Source: Minisyncoccota bacterium
GTDB lineage: Bacteria > Patescibacteriota > Minisyncoccia > JBAYJV01
Reading direction: 5' to 3'
DNA length: 54,120 nt
NCBI GenBank assembly: GCA_041664925.1
Contig: JBAYJV010000001.1
Span: 1-54,120, forward strand
A program made the position numbers and the translations under genes. Positions 3,196-46,580 of the stretch are shown here, piece after piece; the stretch's first letter is position 1; each line of letters starts with the position of its first letter. The notes below the pieces were generated by a model. The model was given only the letters and a program-made list of their open reading frames with translations, was not told the DNA's origin and searched no databases.

Positions 3196-3918
3196 TTATT
3201 TATTAAATCCCAACTGATCTATCCTTTCTTGAACATGCGGAGCGAAGTTTAGATTATTAGTTTCCTCATCAAAATCAAAGAGATCGTCTAGCGACCTGAT
3301 TCCTCCACCATGCTCAGTATAACTCCCGGCATCCAATTTAAAATAAATGCAAAGTAATTCAAAGAAATCTTTCACGGGCATTTTTGCTTTATCTGCCATC
3401 TTTTCAATCGCTTCTCTCATTTCAAAAATGTTCATTTCTTTTCTTAAGAATTTACCCATTGGATCTCCTAATATTAAAACAAATATAGAGTCTGTAAATT
3501 CTTTATCAATTCCCAAAGCGTCAAATAGTTTTTGAATATATTGTCGCGTATATTCGTGTTGAAGATGTTTGCCTCCTTTTTCGATTGCTTCTGGTTTGCC
3601 AATGTCATGTAAAGCTAAAACTAATCTAAATTTATTTCTATCAATTCCTGCTGGTAATGGCTTGTTGCCAAAATATTTTTCGAACTGCCTCATTACTGTC
3701 AGAGTATGTTGCCCTAAAGTATAGCCTTCCCAAACACCCGTCCCTCGCTCATAAATTCCTGGATATTGTCTTTCTAATAATAAAACTAGCTTTTCAGGAT
3801 TAAATTCTTCATCCTTGAAAATTTCCTCCAACTCATTTGCATCAAAGCGCAATTCTAATTTATCTTCTTCTGGATTTCTTGAATCTATTTGAATTTCTTT
3901 CTCTAATCCACCTTCCAT
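3196..3918 (-). CDS. HD-domain protein
   Basis: 240 aa with the H..HD motif in 'GQHTL ... LALHDIGKP'. Confidence 0.6.
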   Translation of the reverse strand: MEGGLEKEIQIDSRNPEEDKLELRFDANELEEIFKDEEFNPEKLVLLLERQYPGIYERGTGVWEGYTLGQHTLTVMRQFEKYFGNKPLPAGIDRNKFRLVLALHDIGKPEAIEKGGKHLQHEYTRQYIQKLFDALGIDKEFTDSIFVLILGDPMGKFLRKEMNIFEMREAIEKMADKAKMPVKDFFELLCIYFKLDAGSYTEHGGGIRSLDDLFDFDEETNNLNFAPHVQERIDQLGFNK

Positions 3919-7348: not shown

Positions 7349-7546
7349 TTAGGGAATCACAAGGAATCCACCCTGATCTTGGTTCCCTCGAACTCTAAGA
7401 GTGATCTTTTGACCATCTTTACGCGTAAAGACATAGTCTTCTCCGTTACCAAGGTCTTTGTATGCAATCGACTTAAGCCCAAGGAACTCTCCAAGCTTCG
7501 TCAATTGCTGACCATGCGATGGACTTGCAGCATTTATAATTTCCAT
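7349..7546 (-). CDS. small soluble orphan protein (GC-richer cassette)
   Basis: 65 aa. It has an SD (GGGAGGTG, 5 nt before the ATG), its own promoter and terminator, and higher GC than its neighbours. Confidence 0.6.
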   Translation of the reverse strand: MEIINAASPSHGQQLTKLGEFLGLKSIAYKDLGNGEDYVFTRKDGQKITLRVRGNQDQGGFLVIP

Positions 7547-7598
7547 GTTTCACCTCCCTGTCTCTTTTTACTTCCCAAGAACTCCCTCAACCCAAATA

Positions 7599-7627
7599 AT
7601 CCTACTACAAGAATATGCAATTGTCAA
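7599..7627 (-). promoter_or_regulatory. sigma70-type promoter
   Basis: Minus strand TTGACA - 17 nt - TAGGAT, about 50 nt upstream of the 7546 start. Confidence 0.6.
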
Positions 7628-7710
7628 CAAAAAAAATCCCAAATGAAATAATTTTGAAAGTTCGATTGTATTAATATTAAGAATGATTAATTTGTGTCAG
7701 TATTAAATCC

Positions 7711-8256
7711 ATGAAAAATAAAAAAATAGCGTTTATTGTCTTTCCTGTTTTAGTAGTCACATTATTGATTGCCGGAACAACATATGCGACCACGATCACG
7801 GGAAGAAATAGTATATTTAACACAATCGCGGATGCCATCGCTAATAAATTCAATTTAAATGTTTCCGATGTTCAAACTGTTATCGATGACACAATTGCTG
7901 CCGATGATCAAGAAATGGGAAAAAACCGCCCAGCGCGAGTTGACCCGCTTGTTCAAGCCATCAAAGATGGAAAACTAACTCAAGCTCAAGCCGATCTCAT
8001 TACTGCTAAAAGAGATGAGATGAGAACATCAATAAAAGATTTAAAAAATATGACTCGAGAACAAATGATCGCTGCCATGAAGACACGAACAGATTCTTTG
8101 AAGCAATGGGCGACAGATAATGGTATTCCTGAACAATATATTATGCCGTTTAGTGGTCTCGGTCACGGCCGTGGCGAAGGAAGAGGTCCAGGCGGACCAG
8201 GATTTAACGGAGACAATTTGCCCCCTCCATCCGATTTACAAGTTCCAAAAAATTAA
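7711..8256 (+). CDS. secreted hypothetical protein
   Basis: 181 aa. N-terminal signal/anchor 'KKIAFIVFPVLVVTLLIAGTTYA' and a Gly/Pro-rich C-terminus. It is the only plus-strand gene in the left 46 kb. Confidence 0.65.
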   Translation: MKNKKIAFIVFPVLVVTLLIAGTTYATTITGRNSIFNTIADAIANKFNLNVSDVQTVIDDTIAADDQEMGKNRPARVDPLVQAIKDGKLTQAQADLITAKRDEMRTSIKDLKNMTREQMIAAMKTRTDSLKQWATDNGIPEQYIMPFSGLGHGRGEGRGPGGPGFNGDNLPPPSDLQVPKN

Positions 8257-8269
8257 TTTACAGGTCAAA

Positions 8270-8306
8270 CAAAAACCCCAAAATACTGGGGTTTTTGTTT
8301 TTTTTA
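8270..8306 (+). terminator. rho-independent terminator
   Basis: AAAACCCCA-aaatac-TGGGGTTTT followed by a T-run. Confidence 0.75.
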
Positions 8307-8327
8307 AAATGCGGAGAGGGTGGGATT

Positions 8328-8347
8328 CCTGCCTGCCGGCAGGCAGG
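8328..8347. repeat. 20-nt perfect palindrome CCTGCCTGCCGGCAGGCAGG (T-loop insertion)
   Basis: gggatt[20 nt]cgaaccc here versus the uninterrupted gggattcgaaccc in the intact tRNA at 8471. Confidence 0.9.
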
Positions 8348-8376
8348 CGAACCCACGGAACCATTGCTGGTTCAAC

Positions 8377-8450
8377 AGTTTTTCCAACCACTTTTCTTTT
8401 AGAAAATGTTCGGATCCGCTCATTCATTTCATTGAAGTGAGCGGACAAGA
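8377..8450. repeat. 74-nt direct repeat R (copy A)
   Basis: 73/74 identical to 8818..8891. Contains the 8-bp hairpin TCCGCTCA..TGAGCGGA and is flanked by anticodon-loop remnants (TCTTG / AAAAACT on the minus strand). Confidence 0.9.
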
Positions 8451-8459
8451 GAATTAAAG

Positions 8460-8546
8460 CGGAGAGGGTGGGATTCGAACCCACGGAACCATTGCTGGTT
8501 CAACAGTTTTCAAGACTGTCACATTCGACCACTCTGTCACCTCTCC
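8460..8546 (-). tRNA. tRNA-Ser (anticodon UGA), class II with long variable arm
   Basis: 87 nt: GGAGAGGTGACAGAGTGGTCGAATGTGACAGTCTTGAAAACTGTTGAACCAGCAATGGTTCCGTGGGTTCGAATCCCACCCTCTCCG. Acceptor stem is 7 bp, anticodon arm ACAGT-CTTGAAA-ACTGT, T arm GTGGG-TTCGAAT-CCCAC. CCA is not encoded. Confidence 0.9.
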
Positions 8547-8563
8547 GCTTTAACTCCCTTTCC

Positions 8564-8814
8564 TTAATAATCTGTATTTTTTAATTTACTTTTTAAAATT
8601 CTTCTTCCTTGCCCTGTCTTTAATAATTTCTCTTCTGCTCTAGCATCTTTTTCATTATTAAACGCTTCGTAAAATAGAATTTTCCATGGCTTATAGGCTT
8701 TTGTAGACTTAACTTTTCCAAGATTATGAGCTATTAATCGTTCTTTTAAATTAGAACTATATCCAATATAACTTTTTTTATCTTTAAACTTTTAAGGAAA
8801 TAGACGTAATGCAT
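8564..8814 (-). pseudogene. GIY-YIG nuclease gene interrupted by a frameshift in an A7 tract
   Basis: The ATG frame gives MHYVYFLKSLKIKK and then stops. Adding one A to the A7 run (plus-strand T7 at 8773-8779) restores ...SYIGYSSNLKERLIAHNLGKVKSTKAYKPWKILFYEAFNNEKDARAEEKLLKTGQGRRILKSKLKNTDY, about 87 aa in total. Confidence 0.75.
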
Positions 8815-8817
8815 ATA

Positions 8818-8891
8818 AGTTTTTCCGACCACTTTTCTTTTAGAAAATGTTCGGATCCGCTCATTCATTTCATTGAAGTGAGCGGACAAGA
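8818..8891. repeat. 74-nt direct repeat R (copy B)
   Basis: 73/74 identical to 8377..8450. The single difference is g at 8827 versus a at 8386. Confidence 0.9.
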
Positions 8892-8906
8892 CTGTCCGAT
8901 TCGACC

Positions 8907-8926
8907 CCTGCCTGCCGGCAGGCAGG
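8907..8926. repeat. 20-nt perfect palindrome CCTGCCTGCCGGCAGGCAGG (D-loop insertion)
   Basis: ttcgacc[20 nt]actctgtcac here versus the uninterrupted ttcgaccactctgtcac in the intact tRNA. Confidence 0.9.
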
Positions 8927-8970
8927 ACTCTGTCACCTCTCCATATTACCTGCTAATTAAAAATTAAAAA

Positions 8971-10713
8971 TTATTCAGTCACCCTTGCTTTTATTCTTTT
9001 TACTCCTGCACCGACTGATTCTTGTTTTACAATTTTAAAGCTTTTCAATTCAGATGTCAATTGAATATGCGGTCCTCGACAAATTTCACATGAATAAAAA
9101 TCGTCTTGCGTTCCATTGGAACTGATTCTATAAACACTCACTCTTTCTGGATATTTCTCTTTAAAAAATCCCAACGCTCCCATTTTTACGGCTTCATCAT
9201 AAGTCGTTTCAATTCTTTCAACTTTTAAATCTTCTTTTATTTTTTGATTAACAATATTTTCTACTTGTACAATTTCATCATTCGTTAAATTTCGTCCAAA
9301 GCTAAAATCAAATCTCAGTCTTTTTTCTGAAATATCCGACCCCATCTGTTTTACCTCTTCTCCTAAAACTTCTCTTAATGCCTTATGAAGCAAATGAGTC
9401 GCTGTGTGAAGTTTAATTTCATAATCTGTTGGGTTCTCTCGAAGCCCGCCTTCTTTTTTTTCAATAACTGTTTTTGAAACTGTCTGGTGTTCTTTTTTCG
9501 CTTTTTCAAATCCTTCTTGATCCAAAGTAAATCCTCTTTCCATCAAAAGTTCCTTGGTAAGCTCTGGAGGAAAACCAAAACTTTCGTAAAGCTTAAATGC
9601 TTCATCTCCCGAAAAGATTTTTCCTTCAATTTTAGCAAGTTTTTTTTCAAGTTCCTTCGTGCCATTTAAAAGCGCTTTTTTAAACGCTACCACTTCTTTT
9701 TCAATCACAGCGATAAGACTAGTTTTATCCTTTCCAATTTCTGGCCAAAAATCGCTATAGTTTTTTACAACCTCATCAATCAAATTAATATACCATCCAT
9801 CTTTAAGATTTAATTTCATCGCTGCCCTAACTGATCTTCGTAAAATTCGTCTTAAAATATAGCCTTCTTTTAAATTTGACGGCGCTAATCCCTCGGCGAT
9901 TAAAAAGACTGAGCCACGAATATGGTCAACAACCACCCTTTCTAGTTTTTTATTTTCCTCAGTAGCTTCATAATCATTCTTTCTTAAAATCTCTAATAAA
10001 GAAGAAAACAAATCAGTTTCAAAAACTGTTTCTTTTTTTTGCATTACCCTTGTTAATCTTTCCAGTCCCATGCCCGTATCAATGCCTTTTTTATCCAATG
10101 TTGCTAATCCACCATTTTTGTCTTGGTAGTATTCGTTAAAAACAACATTCCAAATCTCAGAATTATCTAAATAAAGTTCTGTTGTCGGTCCGCACGGACC
10201 TTCTTCTCCCGTTGGTCCCCAAAAATTATCTTCTCTGCCTCGCTTGGTAATCTGATTTTCTTCAATACCTAAATTAATCCAAATATCATAAGATTCTTTA
10301 TCAAAAGGCACTTCCTTGTCGCCCGCAAAAACCGTAACTTTTAAATCTTCTTTTTTTATCTCCAGCTCCTTTGTAAAAAAATCAAAGGCAAATCCAATCG
10401 CTTCTTTTTTACAATAAGCTCCGTTAAAACAAAAATTTCCCAACATTTCCAAAAATGTCAGGTGGTCTTTGTCGCCCACTTCATCTATATCAGAAGTACG
10501 AAAACATTTTTGAATCGTTGTGATCCTTTCACTGCCCAATTCCTGTTTTGCATCTCTTTTCCCTGAAAAATAATCCTTAAATTGCTGCATGCCTGCGGTC
10601 GTCAAAAGCACCGATGGATCAGTTACATCGATAAGCGAAGAAGAGGGCATTTGTTTGTGCCCACTTTCTGCAAAAAAACTTAAGAATTTTTTTCGCAATT
10701 CTCCAGATGTCAT
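8971..10713 (-). CDS. alaS: alanine--tRNA ligase, compact form without the C-Ala domain
   Basis: 580 aa. N-terminus 'FLSFFAESGHKQMPSSSLI..DPSVLLTTAGMQQFKDYF', 'GMGLERL', and editing-site 'HTATHLLH' and 'CRGPH'. The protein ends right after the editing domain. Confidence 0.9.
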   Translation of the reverse strand: MTSGELRKKFLSFFAESGHKQMPSSSLIDVTDPSVLLTTAGMQQFKDYFSGKRDAKQELGSERITTIQKCFRTSDIDEVGDKDHLTFLEMLGNFCFNGAYCKKEAIGFAFDFFTKELEIKKEDLKVTVFAGDKEVPFDKESYDIWINLGIEENQITKRGREDNFWGPTGEEGPCGPTTELYLDNSEIWNVVFNEYYQDKNGGLATLDKKGIDTGMGLERLTRVMQKKETVFETDLFSSLLEILRKNDYEATEENKKLERVVVDHIRGSVFLIAEGLAPSNLKEGYILRRILRRSVRAAMKLNLKDGWYINLIDEVVKNYSDFWPEIGKDKTSLIAVIEKEVVAFKKALLNGTKELEKKLAKIEGKIFSGDEAFKLYESFGFPPELTKELLMERGFTLDQEGFEKAKKEHQTVSKTVIEKKEGGLRENPTDYEIKLHTATHLLHKALREVLGEEVKQMGSDISEKRLRFDFSFGRNLTNDEIVQVENIVNQKIKEDLKVERIETTYDEAVKMGALGFFKEKYPERVSVYRISSNGTQDDFYSCEICRGPHIQLTSELKSFKIVKQESVGAGVKRIKARVTE

Positions 10714-33706: not shown

Positions 33707-33726
33707 CCTTCCTGCCGACAGGTAGG
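33707..33726. repeat. degenerate copy (17/20) of the 20-nt palindrome
   Basis: CCTTCCTGCCGACAGGTAGG, adjacent to the heptad array at 33728. Confidence 0.5.
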
Positions 33727-33727
33727 T

Positions 33728-33760
33728 CGTTTTACGTTTTACGTTTTACATTTTACGTTT
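33728..33760. repeat. 7-nt periodic array
   Basis: cgtttta|cgtttta|cgtttta|catttta|cgttt abuts the stop of the LVIVD pilin gene. Confidence 0.65.
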
Positions 33761-43719: not shown

Positions 43720-45087
43720 CTAATCAAGTTCAACTGCATCTCCTTTGTACGGAACCATGGCTTCTATTCCAAGATTATCTCGAACTTGATTCAATAATGC
43801 CAAGGCTGGTCCTTCCTCGCCTTGAATAATAAAAATTTTTCTAATTTTATGAGTATCAAATCTTTCAAGCCATTTCATTAGTCCTTTTTTGTCCGGATGA
43901 GCTGAATATCCGCCAATCGCCCTAATTTTACACATAACCTGAACTGGTTTGTCAAAGATTTTTATTAATTTCTCTCCTTCAAGAATACGCCTTCCCGGAG
44001 AACCCGCTGTCTGATAAGAAATAATCAAAAGCAAACTCTTTGGATCAGAAAGATAGCGCCTTTCGTGGTGAAGAATTCTTCCTCCGTTTGACATTCCTGA
44101 GCCAGCAATAATTACTTTTGGCGGAGGAACATCATTAATCATCCTCGATTCGGCCGGTGTCTCTGTAAATTTTAGACCGGAAAAACTGAATATCTGATCG
44201 CCATGCAAAAGCAAATTTTTAGCTTCGTTATTATAATATCGAGAATATTTTTTATAAATATCAGTTAAGCGGATTGCTAAAGGACTATCTATAAAAATTG
44301 GCACAAACGGAATTCTTTTGTTTTCAACAAGCTCATTAAGTTCAAATAAAAGTTCTTGTGTTCTTTCAAGGGCAAATGCCGGCACCATTAAAACTCCTTT
44401 GTTGGTAATTGTTTCTTCAATCGCATCTTCGAAAAGTTCTTTTCTTAATTCTCTGTCTTCATGGATTCTATCACCATAAGTTGATTCTATTAGAATATAA
44501 TCTGCTCCTTTTATGTATTCTGTTGGTCTCAAAAGAGGTGTTGGCGGATTGCCTAGATCGCCCGAAAAAACAATTGTACGTTTTTTTCTTCCTTCTTTTG
44601 CCGAAACTTTAATAATTGCTGAGCCTAAAACGTGACCAGCGTCGTAAAAACACACTTTTACATTGTCATCTATTTCGGTCTCTTTGTTATACTCTAAGCC
44701 GCTAAACATATTTAGGCATTTTCGAAGATCTTTTTCTTCGTAAAGCATTTCTCCTCCGCTTGATCGATTTTCTTCCTCTAGTAAGCCAAGAGCATCTTCT
44801 AGCATTGGTATCGCTAAATCAGTCGTTGGAATGGTTGAATAAATTTTTCCTTCATAGCCTTCTTTAATCAAGCGTGGCAAAAGCCCAATGTGGTCAATGT
44901 GGGCATGAGTAATAAAAACCGCCTTAATATTTTTTGGATCATAAGGAAAGGCCTGGTAATTTTGTTCGTCAGCAAATTTATTACCCTGGGTCAATCCACA
45001 CTCAAAAAGATATTGATTGCCATTTACTTCAAGAAGGTAATTGGCGCCAGTTACCGATCTTGCTCCCCCGCAAAATGTAAGCTTCAT
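43720..45087 (-). CDS. MBL-fold beta-CASP family hydrolase (RNA/DNA nuclease type)
   Basis: 455 aa with 'HAHIDHIG' (HxHxDH) and later D/H motifs at beta-CASP spacing. Confidence 0.8.
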   Translation of the reverse strand: MKLTFCGGARSVTGANYLLEVNGNQYLFECGLTQGNKFADEQNYQAFPYDPKNIKAVFITHAHIDHIGLLPRLIKEGYEGKIYSTIPTTDLAIPMLEDALGLLEEENRSSGGEMLYEEKDLRKCLNMFSGLEYNKETEIDDNVKVCFYDAGHVLGSAIIKVSAKEGRKKRTIVFSGDLGNPPTPLLRPTEYIKGADYILIESTYGDRIHEDRELRKELFEDAIEETITNKGVLMVPAFALERTQELLFELNELVENKRIPFVPIFIDSPLAIRLTDIYKKYSRYYNNEAKNLLLHGDQIFSFSGLKFTETPAESRMINDVPPPKVIIAGSGMSNGGRILHHERRYLSDPKSLLLIISYQTAGSPGRRILEGEKLIKIFDKPVQVMCKIRAIGGYSAHPDKKGLMKWLERFDTHKIRKIFIIQGEEGPALALLNQVRDNLGIEAMVPYKGDAVELD

Positions 45088-45168: not shown

Positions 45169-45188
45169 CCTGCCTGCCGGCAGGCAGG
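45169..45188. repeat. 20-nt perfect palindrome CCTGCCTGCCGGCAGGCAGG (intergenic copy)
   Basis: Identical to the copies at 8328 and 8907. It is embedded in a heptad-like tract inside the larger hairpin AAATCCTAAGC..GCTTCGGATTT, 3' of the phosphomutase gene. Confidence 0.9.
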
Positions 45189-45215: not shown

Positions 45216-46580
45216 TTAATCAGATTTAATTTCTATTATATTTTTAATCTCTTCTGTTTTTTCTTTTAAAAGTTTTTCGTTCTTCGCTTCTAAATTAAGC
45301 CTTAATAACGGCTCTGTATTCGATGGTCTGACATTAAACCACCAATCATCAAATTCAACCGTAAGTCCGTCAAGTTTATTCTTTTTGCCATCTCTGTAAG
45401 TTTTTTCAAGAATTTTGAGTATCCTTTTTTTATCTTCAACCTCAAAATTAATCTCGCCCGAATGAAAATATTTCTCAAATGGTTCAATAAGTTCCTTAAG
45501 ACTTTTTTTCTGTTCTGTCATAATTTCAAAAACTTTTATCATCGCCAACATAGCTGATTCGCATCCAAAAAAATCCTCAAAGAAATAATGACCTGATGTT
45601 TCGCCAGCAAAAATCGCTTTTTCTTTGCGCATTTGCTCTTTGATTAAAGAATGGCCAACTTTAGAAATTAGCGCTTTGCCCCCCGCCTTCTCAATTGCTT
45701 CTCTGGGGGTCCATAAAGATCGCAGATCGTAGATAACTTTCCCCCCCGGTTTCTCTTTAAGAACTTTTTGAGCAAGAAGAGAAGTTACAAAATCTCCTCG
45801 AATAACTTTTTGATCCTCATCTAAAAAAACTACGCGATCGCCGTCACCATCAAAAGCAACTCCTAAAGTAGCTTTTTCTTTTTTCATAACATCTTTTATT
45901 GCGCCGAGGGTTTCTTCTTTGAAAGGATTGGCTTCGTGGTTAGGAAAAGTGCAGTCGATATCAAAAAAAAGCGGAATATATTCAATATTAAAACGCTTCA
46001 ATAATTCTGGTAACACCAGCGCTGTCATGGCATTTCCCGCATCAACTACGATTTTGCCCTCAAGACAAACCTTTGCTTTCTTTGTTAAAAAATCTATATA
46101 ATAAGGAGTAATTGGCTTGTAATCAATAGCTTCTTTCGATTCTCCCTTATTAAATTTTTCGTTAACGGCATTTTTTTGAATAATTTTTAACCCTGTTTCG
46201 CCACTAATGGGAATTGCTTTGCTTTTGGTCATTTTAAAGCCGTTGTATTCGGCCGGATTATGAGAGGCTGTGATCATCACTCCGCCATTGGTTCCTAGAA
46301 AATTTACTGCCCAATAAAGCATCGGTGTTGTTGCATAACCAATATCAAAAACATCCCCTCCTTGTTTTGTAATTCCTTGGGTCAATGCTTCAAAAATTTT
46401 ATCAGACGATATTCTTCCGTCCCGTCCGACAGCGATTTTTGGTTCATCAATTCCTTCTGTTTTTCGAATAAAATCTAAATATGCACGACCGATGCTATAA
46501 GCAATTTTTTCATTAAGTTCGCTAGGATATATACCACGAATATCGTAGGCTTTAAAAATACCTGGATCGATTTTTAACAT
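45216..46580 (-). CDS. phosphoglucomutase/phosphomannomutase family protein
   Basis: 454 aa with the phosphoserine loop 'TASHNPAEYNGFK' and the Mg loop 'FDGDGDR'. Confidence 0.9.
   Translation of the reverse strand: MLKIDPGIFKAYDIRGIYPSELNEKIAYSIGRAYLDFIRKTEGIDEPKIAVGRDGRISSDKIFEALTQGITKQGGDVFDIGYATTPMLYWAVNFLGTNGGVMITASHNPAEYNGFKMTKSKAIPISGETGLKIIQKNAVNEKFNKGESKEAIDYKPITPYYIDFLTKKAKVCLEGKIVVDAGNAMTALVLPELLKRFNIEYIPLFFDIDCTFPNHEANPFKEETLGAIKDVMKKEKATLGVAFDGDGDRVVFLDEDQKVIRGDFVTSLLAQKVLKEKPGGKVIYDLRSLWTPREAIEKAGGKALISKVGHSLIKEQMRKEKAIFAGETSGHYFFEDFFGCESAMLAMIKVFEIMTEQKKSLKELIEPFEKYFHSGEINFEVEDKKRILKILEKTYRDGKKNKLDGLTVEFDDWWFNVRPSNTEPLLRLNLEAKNEKLLKEKTEEIKNIIEIKSD

Follow-up and report, generated by a model that had tools for sequence, protein, structure and literature searches.

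How does a gene for a small nuclease, followed by a complete tRNA gene, come to lie inside a second and broken copy of that same tRNA gene when no integrase is present? The question is raised by a 54,120-nt stretch of a Minisyncoccota genome (Patescibacteriota; GenBank assembly GCA_041664925.1, contig JBAYJV010000001.1, positions 1–54,120), referred to here as the window. Read on the minus strand, which carries all features described below unless stated otherwise, the locus runs from position 8942 down to 8312 in the order outer tRNA-Ser 5′ half, first copy of a 74-nt repeat, R (R1), GIY-YIG nuclease gene, inner tRNA-Ser(UGA), second copy of the repeat (R2) and outer tRNA-Ser 3′ half, and each outer half is further interrupted by a 20-nt perfect palindrome (PAL). 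A first-pass annotation, made from the letters alone, had given the coordinates and repeats of these parts, all of which were verified, and had noted the lack of an integrase, which also holds: between 8312 and 8942 there is no recombinase, the only open reading frames (ORFs) there being GIY-YIG fragments and chance ORFs.

Our analysis points, with a probability of about 0.65, to the invasion of a resident alaS-linked tRNA-Ser(UGA) gene by a miniature nuclease cassette that is selfish and homing-like. The cassette would consist of a gene for an ∼83-aa GIY-YIG protein of the SLX1/UPF0213 type, the GC-rich hairpins upstream of it (PAL and R) and a replacement tRNA-Ser with a short leader. The inner tRNA would then be the working gene and the outer halves the split resident gene, still providing promoter and terminator to the whole unit.

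The alaS-linked site in relatives

Orthologous sites were recovered using the alanyl-tRNA synthetase (AlaRS) encoded by the upstream neighbour alaS (8971–10713; 580 aa) as the anchor, and three states of the locus were found (sequences used for comparison are cited by L number). The site is empty in L224–L226, whose AlaRS is 68% identical to that of the window and which have upstream genes in common with it. Here alaS is followed by 34 nt and then by a single uninterrupted tRNA-Ser(UGA) of the GGAGAGG type; the nuclease, PAL and R are all absent, and the leader that precedes the inner tRNA in the window is not present upstream of the tRNA. The standard filled form is that of L124 and L125 (AlaRS ∼85% identical), in which leader, tRNA positions 1–16, PAL, positions 17–35, R and AAAAACT are followed by an intact 83-aa GIY-YIG gene (P0001, 84% identical), a leader, an intact tRNA-Ser and then unrelated sequence, without a second R and without an outer 3′ half. 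The third state, a replaced cassette, is that of L220–L223 (AlaRS 91% identical; four identical assemblies), where the outer stub is identical to that of the window at 31/31 positions, the unusual ATCG included, whereas the stub hairpins differ (TCCGCCCGAGGCGGA; CCAGCCCGAGGCTGG + TCGGCCTTGGGCCGA). The nuclease of L220–L223 is a 91-aa GIY-YIG protein of another clade, and the last ∼11 codons of its gene and the leader are those of the window/L124-type cassette.

The site is thus polymorphic, being empty in L224–L226 and filled in the window, L124/L125, L126 and L220–L223, and the three states together imply that it was at first empty, was then invaded and later had its cassette replaced in one lineage. 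On comparison of the sequences, one cassette appears to have been replaced by another through recombination in the L220 lineage; the exchange with retention of the old ORF tail and leader, and the mosaic outer stubs, fit recombinational exchange. The inner tRNA of L220 is followed by TTTTGTTCCTCTTGTC, homologous to the window spacer, TCTTG and the first bases of R2, and this retention implies that the nested junction after the inner tRNA is older than the divergence of the window from L220. The L124-type form can arise from the nested form of the window if the inner 3′ end recombines with the outer one, of which CATT after the corresponding tRNA end at both the window and L124 is a slight indication. 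A 66-aa ORF lies between the inner tRNA and the terminator in L220 (4253–4453), the closest relative, and is absent from the window. At the empty site, L224 (3824–5170) and L226 (2055–3401) carry a gene for a 448-aa large serine recombinase on the opposite strand, ∼160 nt downstream of the intact tRNA-Ser, and a different mobile element may be using the tRNA-Ser of these genomes.

These states bear on the earlier proposal that a small unit integrated into an anticodon loop that already contained R. The part concerning a unit with nuclease and replacement tRNA in a resident tRNA-Ser is upheld by the empty site; the R-containing target is not, and the form 5′ half–R–3′ half, which the annotation had suggested be sought in relatives, was not among the sites recovered. 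A Campbell-style event, in which a circular R + nuclease + tRNA unit recombined with an R already present in the resident anticodon loop, would explain the direct-repeat arrangement of R1 and R2, each between the same tRNA flanks (TCTTG..AAAAACT), and the presence of one and the same hairpin module on both sides in the nested loci L141 and L137, and recombination between the two R copies would restore 5′ half–R–3′ half plus a circle. We nevertheless consider such an event unlikely: the solo-R allele was not found and the empty site has no R, the orthologue L124 has a single R, the right-hand module of L141 lies in the T-loop and the left-hand one in the anticodon loop, which is not a simple duplicated target, and a tRNA with R in its anticodon loop would have been dead before its replacement arrived. 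Nor is the idea supported that pairing between R copies drove integration; R is better described as the double hairpin of the cassette itself, equivalent hairpin pairs being found in the D-, anticodon or T-loop of other tRNA remnants beside related nucleases, with a type that follows the nuclease clade.

A family of tRNA-gene cassettes

The invasion of a resident tRNA gene by a nuclease cassette is further supported by recurrence of the design. Among tRNA loci selected by PAL, those with sufficient sequence have a 5′ fragment, then a small ORF for a GIY-YIG protein and after it a second, intact copy of the tRNA concerned; examples are a complete curated WWE3 genome (L040, tRNA-Lys), L109 (tRNA-Gly), a Chitinophagales locus (L121, tRNA-Leu), L102 and L258, while L086 is a deletion derivative in which seven codons of the ORF are left. 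A second sample comprised 80 metagenome loci picked solely by protein similarity (profile from 10 sequences), 78 of them with enough sequence. A tRNA on the same strand begins 0–86 nt after the ORF in 25/78 (Ser-UGA, Ser-CGA, Ser-GCU, Cys, Ala, Gln, Gly, Met and Ile), and a copy of the first 14 nt of that tRNA is found 49–111 nt before the ATG at 15 of the 23 loci with enough upstream sequence, with a downstream copy of the tRNA 3′ end in five of the protein-selected loci. The mirror form, with an intact tRNA just upstream and in several cases a duplicated 3′ end downstream, accounts for ∼13 more, so that about half of the 78 adjoin a tRNA gene, usually together with a partial tRNA duplicate. 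The nested form of the window, in which one and the same hairpin module flanks nuclease and tRNA on both sides, is seen in L141 and L137.

The cassette design is therefore found in many tRNA genes and two phyla, and the window, as judged from these alignments, represents the nested form of a large cassette family in which partial 5′ or 3′ duplication of the tRNA is commoner; in the commoner form the nuclease ORF directly adjoins one intact tRNA. No description of this architecture or of PAL was found in the published literature, subscription-only papers lying outside our coverage, which agrees with the impression recorded in the first-pass annotation, and the cassettes apparently form an undescribed family. 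In L191 (1050–1750) two tandem units, each made of a tRNA-Ser(CGA) 5′ fragment, hairpins and GIY-YIG gene, precede one intact tRNA, from which it follows that local amplification of a cassette is possible.

Anatomy of the composite locus

A promoter-like site (TTGACA-17-TAAAAT, 11/12 match, from a consensus scan only) lies within the 3′ end of alaS at 9032–9060, ∼90 nt 5′ of the outer tRNA start, and is likely to be the promoter of the resident tRNA gene, now driving the entire composite. Downstream of the outer tRNA 3′ end is the hairpin of a bidirectional rho-independent terminator (8267–8300), with a homologous terminator in L220. Near-consensus as it is, the promoter, taken with the lone terminator beyond the outer tRNA, suggests that signals of the resident gene start and end a single transcript of the composite.

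Outer tRNA positions 1–16 (GGAGAGGTGACAGAGT, 8927–8942) are identical to the stub of L220 and are followed in the D-loop (AGAGT^GGTCG) by the first PAL (CCTGCCTGCCGGCAGGCAGG, 8907–8926), which L124 has at the same position with one mismatch. Positions 17–35 plus one loop base (GGTCGAATCGGACAGTCTTG, 8887–8906) contain a D-stem strand, ATCG, that fails to pair with ACAG at positions 10–13. The 62-nt core of R1 is a double hairpin within the outer anticodon loop (TCCGCTCA..TGAGCGGA, then TCCGA..TCGGA; 8825–8886) and is 61/62 identical in L124. The left remnant ends with AAAAACT (outer tRNA positions 36–41/42; 8818–8824), which runs directly into the TAT-ATG of the nuclease gene (8564–8814), a design also seen in L124, L128 and L174. 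Next come the 17-nt leader (GGAAAGGGAGTTAAAGC, 8547–8563), homologous to the AAAGGGAAACAAAAC leader before the inner tRNA in L124 and L220, the intact 87-nt inner tRNA-Ser(UGA) (8460–8546) and a 9-nt spacer (CTTTAATTC, 8451–8459), a homologue of which, with TCTTGTC, is kept in L220. R2 (TCTTG + double hairpin + AAAAACT, 74 nt; 8377–8450) is 73/74 identical to the full R1 copy (8818–8891), the sole change giving a G–U pair in hairpin 2. The outer tRNA then resumes with positions 36–57 (8348–8382; 35/35 identical to the inner gene), which include the 3′ side of the anticodon, the long variable arm and the 5′ strand of the T-stem. The second PAL (8328–8347), 20/20 identical to the first, lies in the T-loop between positions 57 and 58 (GGTTCG^AATCC), a junction also present in L002 and L003, and is followed by the 16-nt 3′ end (AATCCCACCCTCTCCG, 8312–8327). 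Chance would not yield a single PAL, as judged from 100 shuffles.

The inner tRNA-Ser(UGA) is called intact by ARAGORN and scores 60.1 bits against the Rfam tRNA model (gathering score 29), while the native outer copy was detected by neither. When both PALs and everything between TCTTG and AAAACTG were cut out in silico, ARAGORN called the 87-nt product tRNA-Ser(TGA) with two differences from the inner gene, as had been claimed; these are CG for GT at positions 25–26, and with them two of the three Watson–Crick D-stem pairs are lost.

That the cleaned sequence is still called a tRNA-Ser raises the possibility that the outer copy is a working, multiply interrupted tRNA from whose transcript PAL, R and the nuclease–tRNA insert are removed, much as in archaeal tRNAs that are split, permuted or have several introns, or as with a group I intron lying in an anticodon loop. 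The insertions do lie precisely in three loops, the outer acceptor strands pair (GGAGAGG/CCTCTCC) and the outer remnants are conserved. We regard this possibility as very improbable, given that a scan of 7500–9800 yielded no group I intron and no other Rfam family beside tRNA even at E ≤ 1, that the cleaned copy has two broken D-stem pairs, a state that must be old because it is common to the window and L220, and that most relatives hold a single 5′ or 3′ fragment unable to form a tRNA. The archaeal splicing endonuclease is not known from bacteria.

Reliability of the assembly

With repeats of 74, 35 and 20 nt all within the region, collapse or mis-joining of a tRNA repeat has to be considered, as short-k assemblies break at the locus and the inner tRNA-to-R2 junction in full is confined to the window contig. 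In two other SRA runs, the alaS/5′ half/PAL/R and terminator/3′ half/PAL junctions are reproduced in contigs that end exactly at the start of the repeats, and because these outer junctions recur the structure is not the product of one assembler. A look-up of the records for P0002, the truncated gene call of the window, gave no independent contig for the middle of the locus. The first ∼16 nt after the inner tRNA, spacer and TCTTGTC, are kept in the four L220-type assemblies. Furthermore, the left two-thirds of the locus are colinear with L124/L125 from other samples, an equal architecture is present in the complete curated WWE3 genome, and R1 and R2 are told apart by one base. Together, these observations make an assembly artefact hardly credible.

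The GIY-YIG nuclease

The ORF at 8814–8564 had been taken as intact, but its frame is broken: the ATG frame ends after 22 codons at a stop at 8746 and the remaining part of the domain is read in a different frame. When the gene is aligned with the intact orthologue, the frameshift proves to be the loss of 1 nt directly behind an A7 run, near 8772, and the window copy is, on this alignment, best read as a pseudogene, unless slippage at the adjacent A7 run restores the frame. As a consequence of the frameshift, the window cassette would be a fossil copy that no longer drives itself. A frameshift codon common to L109 and the window, of the kind expected from programmed frameshifting, was considered and dropped when the alignment moved the window lesion past the A7 run. 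L109 has a separate 1-nt loss in a nearby A4 run (∼3743–3800), so that the two loci have independent losses at or beside A-runs, in both cases within the Lys-rich segment that separates GIY from YIG, which could be due to a mutational hot spot or to slippage-dependent expression.

Proteins of the family are ∼80–90 aa long and consist of the catalytic domain only; in the 83-aa form there is no DNA-binding domain. Residues Y5, Y16, G18, R26, H30 and E62 are invariant in 20 family members, and the reconstructed window protein has all of them. Against Pfam PF01541 (cut-off 22.6), P0001 reaches 53.8 bits, and the reading frames of the window itself match the family hidden Markov model at 8.7e-33, whereas in NCBIfam no model scored above its cut-off, the best being a group I intron endonuclease model at 20.7 bits against 56. 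A profile search of PDB returned the UPF0213 proteins BH0048 (1ZG2, 2.4e-11) and EF2693 (1YWL, 1.2e-9), then SLX1 entries, and the AlphaFold2 model (predicted local distance difference test score 92.6) gave Foldseek TM scores of 0.66–0.69 to SLX1 nuclease domains and 0.49 to I-TevI. By sequence and predicted fold, the nuclease belongs to the SLX1/UPF0213 branch. The description of it as a homing-type nuclease is thus correct as to the GIY-YIG domain and not as to the type, since it differs from classical homing nucleases in being a catalytic domain of the SLX1/UPF0213 kind and nothing more, and in the window it is frameshifted.

Differences between the window and L124 ORFs number 8/5/23 at codon positions 1/2/3, which implies that the protein was under purifying selection until recently. 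The ORF, the sole GIY-YIG gene in the window, has a G+C content of 25% (window, 35.6%). The family profile collects 5,384 cluster representatives at 50% identity (E ≤ 1e-10). Many database gene calls of the family, such as P0020 in L137, have N-terminal extensions of 20–45 aa that are the translated hairpin and tRNA-fragment leader, a systematic annotation artefact.

The hairpin leader

R folds as two hairpins and PAL as a third (z = −4.8 and −5.4). Beside related nucleases, tRNA remnants nearly always have their D-, anticodon or T-loop occupied by GC-rich hairpins; the typical unit is 15 nt long (TCNNNC-NNN-GNNNGA), is often paired and shows compensatory changes in its stem. The density of such TC..GA hairpins is ten times as high within 150 nt upstream of the ORF as elsewhere (2.97/kb against 0.30/kb), and cassettes with a common stem have more similar nucleases (61.8% against 47.9% identity, p = 3e-15). 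Combined with other inner stems, the R stem TCCGCTCA/TGAGCGGA is found again in L126, L135, L141 and L143.

Between the window and L124, stub, PAL, R and AAAAACT differ at 6 of 125 nt (95.2% identical), and PAL, R and AAAAACT alone at 2 of 89 nt, whereas third positions of alaS differ at 23.5% (76.5% identical; P = 1.3e-8 against the stub-to-AAAAACT stretch). From this conservation and from the tracking of nuclease clades it follows that the hairpin leader is under constraint as a part of the cassette; it is not debris, nor was it in place beforehand as a target. The same conservation rules out the outer stub as decaying junk. The outer TCGGA variant is not an excision footprint either, since the inner tRNA of L220 has ATCG as its normal D-stem strand and the L220 stub is identical.

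Dispersal of the palindrome

The exact PAL string is present in at least 120 reference genomes of many phyla, including Patescibacteria, Bacteroidota, Omnitrophota, Planctomycetota and Proteobacteria, with cultured Bacteroidota (Winogradskyella, Flagellimonas, Longitalea, Flavivirga, Aquiflexum and Agriterribacter) among them, and in 35 stretches of viral contigs; several of the sites are inside tRNA D-loops, anticodon arms or T-loops. The two palindromes are therefore not incidental damage to this one pseudogene. Flanking direct repeats are more frequent at PAL sites (9.4% against 0.5%) and of variable length (7–14 nt or more), and 11% of sites, against 2.4%, lie within larger inverted repeats. 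PAL does not qualify as a transposase-driven miniature inverted-repeat transposable element (MITE) or repetitive extragenic palindromic (REP) sequence, the repeat lengths not being fixed and no transposase being linked, and its distribution is that of a dispersed element that would be inserted in its own right.

PAL was also considered as an obligatory part of the cassette and rejected as such, a GIY-YIG gene being found within 8 kb at 6/120 PAL loci and a PAL-like sequence in just 1/80 of the protein-selected cassettes. The same counts speak for a reading without any causal link, in which a tandem tRNA-Ser duplication left one copy to decay and this copy passively gathered unrelated insertions, namely two of a MITE-like palindrome, two of a hairpin repeat and one of a stray gene for a GIY-YIG protein of host function; dead tRNA copies do tolerate insertions that would be fatal to live ones. 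Such passive accumulation is quite unlikely in view of the order tRNA part–hairpins–nuclease–intact tRNA, which recurs in dozens of unrelated tRNA genes of two phyla, the co-variation of hairpin type with nuclease clade, the conservation of the ‘dead’ stub, PAL and R in the manner of functional sequence, and the exchange of cassettes at one and the same site.

Several further occurrences were noted. A third perfect PAL in the window (45169–45188), intergenic between ORFs 43720–45087 and 45216–46580 (both on the minus strand), means that PAL is dispersed in the genome beyond the tRNA locus. At 33707–33757 a degenerate PAL with three mismatches is followed directly by four tandem heptamers, CGTTTTA, and short tandem arrays of 7–9 nt adjoin many PAL sites elsewhere (L104, L085, L005, L053 and L061); they could be footprints of repeated insertion and excision, or something else. 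Two viral contigs (L251, 2239–2330, and L228) have PAL in the variable region of a tRNA-Met(CAT) as an extra arm, ARAGORN still calling a 92-nt tRNA, and here a live tRNA may tolerate the insertion. The 29.5-kb viral contig IMGVR_UViG_3300037242_000417 (L247, L254 and L255) holds at least six PALs in longer direct or inverted repeats, with no GIY-YIG gene of this family in the parts fetched.

Proposed mechanism and its difficulties

For the proposed nuclease cassette, the observations above are accommodated by a homing-like cycle. The nuclease would cut tRNA genes, or the hairpin or cloverleaf DNA that tRNA genes can form, the latter being proposed because it is expected of an SLX1-like enzyme, and recombination with a copy that has the cassette would repair the break. 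Flanks derived from the tRNA would serve as homology arms, the cassette being copied in with enough tRNA to leave one intact gene. The hairpin modules would be cis-acting parts of the cassette: places where the nuclease cuts, a shield that keeps the remnant from being cut again or from being deleted through repeats, or a leader that controls expression.

Several points weigh against this mechanism. Cleavage activity and target are putative for every member of the family, and a protein devoid of a DNA-binding domain is no obvious candidate for sequence-specific homing. Any tRNA-based target should also be kept by the inner tRNA, which is intact, so that avoidance of self-cutting is unaccounted for. 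About half of the family is not adjacent to a tRNA gene. Conservation of the hairpin leader could reflect a function at the level of the host or of RNA instead of mobility. The mechanism does not account in detail for the duplication of the 74-nt R in the window, and the junction from inner tRNA to R2 is given by one assembly and the 16-nt remnant of L220.

A broader interpretation, which we put forward tentatively, is that PAL, R and the 15-nt TC..GA hairpins are non-autonomous partners of SLX1/UPF0213 mini-nucleases and together constitute a new class of mobile DNA. A structure-specific nuclease would cut hairpin or cloverleaf DNA, such as the loops of tRNA genes and terminators, and the break would receive copies of hairpin units, whether or not the nuclease gene came with them. 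If true, this would account for identical PAL sequences from Patescibacteria to Bacteroidota, Planctomycetota, Proteobacteria and viral contigs, for hairpins in D-, anticodon and T-loops, and for the role of thousands of UPF0213-like proteins.

Relation to known systems

The closest precedent for homing-like spread of the window cassette, which we propose by analogy and as part of the cassette mechanism favoured above, is SegB of phage T4, a GIY-YIG homing nuclease whose 27-bp site includes the conserved TψC motif of tRNAs and which spreads by break repair along with flanking tRNA genes (PMC2330249); a 2026 study ties it to local segmental amplification (PMC13096335). Both systems have a GIY-YIG gene among or beside tRNA genes and a site that is polymorphic for its presence, and both lack an integrase. 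SegB is a member of the I-TevI/Seg branch, in which the catalytic domain is paired with a DNA-binding domain. The window protein is, in contrast, a bare ∼83-aa SLX1/UPF0213 catalytic domain with putative cleavage activity, and its cassette lies inside a chromosomal tRNA gene of a cell, with a compensating duplicate of part or all of the tRNA and conserved hairpins.

The hairpins themselves recall the GC clusters and double-hairpin elements of fungal mitochondria, which are short GC-rich palindromes in AT-rich genomes with flanking short direct repeats, have stems more constrained than their loops, merge or shuffle into tandem pairs, spread by recombination with co-conversion, and form recombination hot spots (PMC4478555). 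Whereas those elements are found in organelles, the hairpins described here are found in bacterial chromosomes and viral contigs, favour the loops of tRNA-gene remnants and of other hairpins, and in the case of PAL are identical over 20 nt across phyla with flanking repeats of 7 to at least 14 nt. In Allomyces, double-hairpin elements lie beside mobile GIY-YIG ORFs in which part of the host gene is duplicated.

The best match in sequence and fold, with equal size and domain content, is with the UPF0213/SLX1-like proteins (BH0048, 1ZG2; EF2693, 1YWL). In the sources searched, UPF0213 proteins have no assigned function, target or mobility, and no embedding in tRNA genes, hairpin modules or site polymorphism is described for them. 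A 2006 survey lists fusions of the ‘Slx-1 cluster’ to COG4123, an N-methyltransferase, as well as to a tRNA methyltransferase of the TrmH type (PMC1564403), and these hint at a tRNA connection of this branch.

Resemblance to integrative elements that restore the tRNA they disrupt, suggested in the first-pass annotation, extends to function and outcome and not beyond. Genomic islands, prophages and integrative and conjugative elements of actinomycetes (AICEs) likewise enter a tRNA gene, restore a copy and leave a fragment as a direct repeat, but they do so with a tyrosine or serine integrase at a fixed attachment core, usually at the tRNA 3′ end, whereas the cassettes have no recombinase, measure ∼0.3–0.6 kb, duplicate either end or the whole of the tRNA and have breakpoints around the anticodon arm. 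REP sequences with their REP-associated tyrosine transposases (RAYTs) and MITEs are short, dispersed and structured, as are PAL and the TC..GA hairpins, and all may need a protein supplied in trans. The hairpins have no known transposase class, the associated gene being a GIY-YIG nuclease, and REP families are lineage-specific whereas PAL is identical across phyla. The locus therefore shows the site polymorphism of a homing element without a DNA-binding domain, and fails as an integrase element, a group I intron or an interrupted functional tRNA.

There is a real chance that the pairing of hairpins with a nuclease is a new kind of mobile DNA. Should the selfish-cassette interpretation hold, small GIY-YIG proteins of the UPF0213 type gain a testable role as the engine of miniature selfish tRNA-gene cassettes, an 83-aa nuclease with no recombinase may be a minimal homing system, and there would be a bacterial parallel to the long-puzzling GC clusters and double-hairpin elements of fungal mitochondria. 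The identity of PAL over 20 nt across phyla is a puzzle that merits follow-up. The cassettes also have practical consequences: they produce tRNA pseudo-fragments, nested tRNAs and hairpin-laden leaders that confuse tRNA counts in streamlined genomes, for example those of Patescibacteria (candidate phyla radiation, CPR), in which tRNA complements serve to gauge completeness and lifestyle, and they yield spurious N-terminal extensions in gene calls.

The neighbouring gene

The AlaRS encoded upstream of the locus has, within its 580 aa, the catalytic and second additional domains and lacks the C-terminal domain. Its close relatives are all 546–613 aa long, and those with taxon names are from Patescibacteria.

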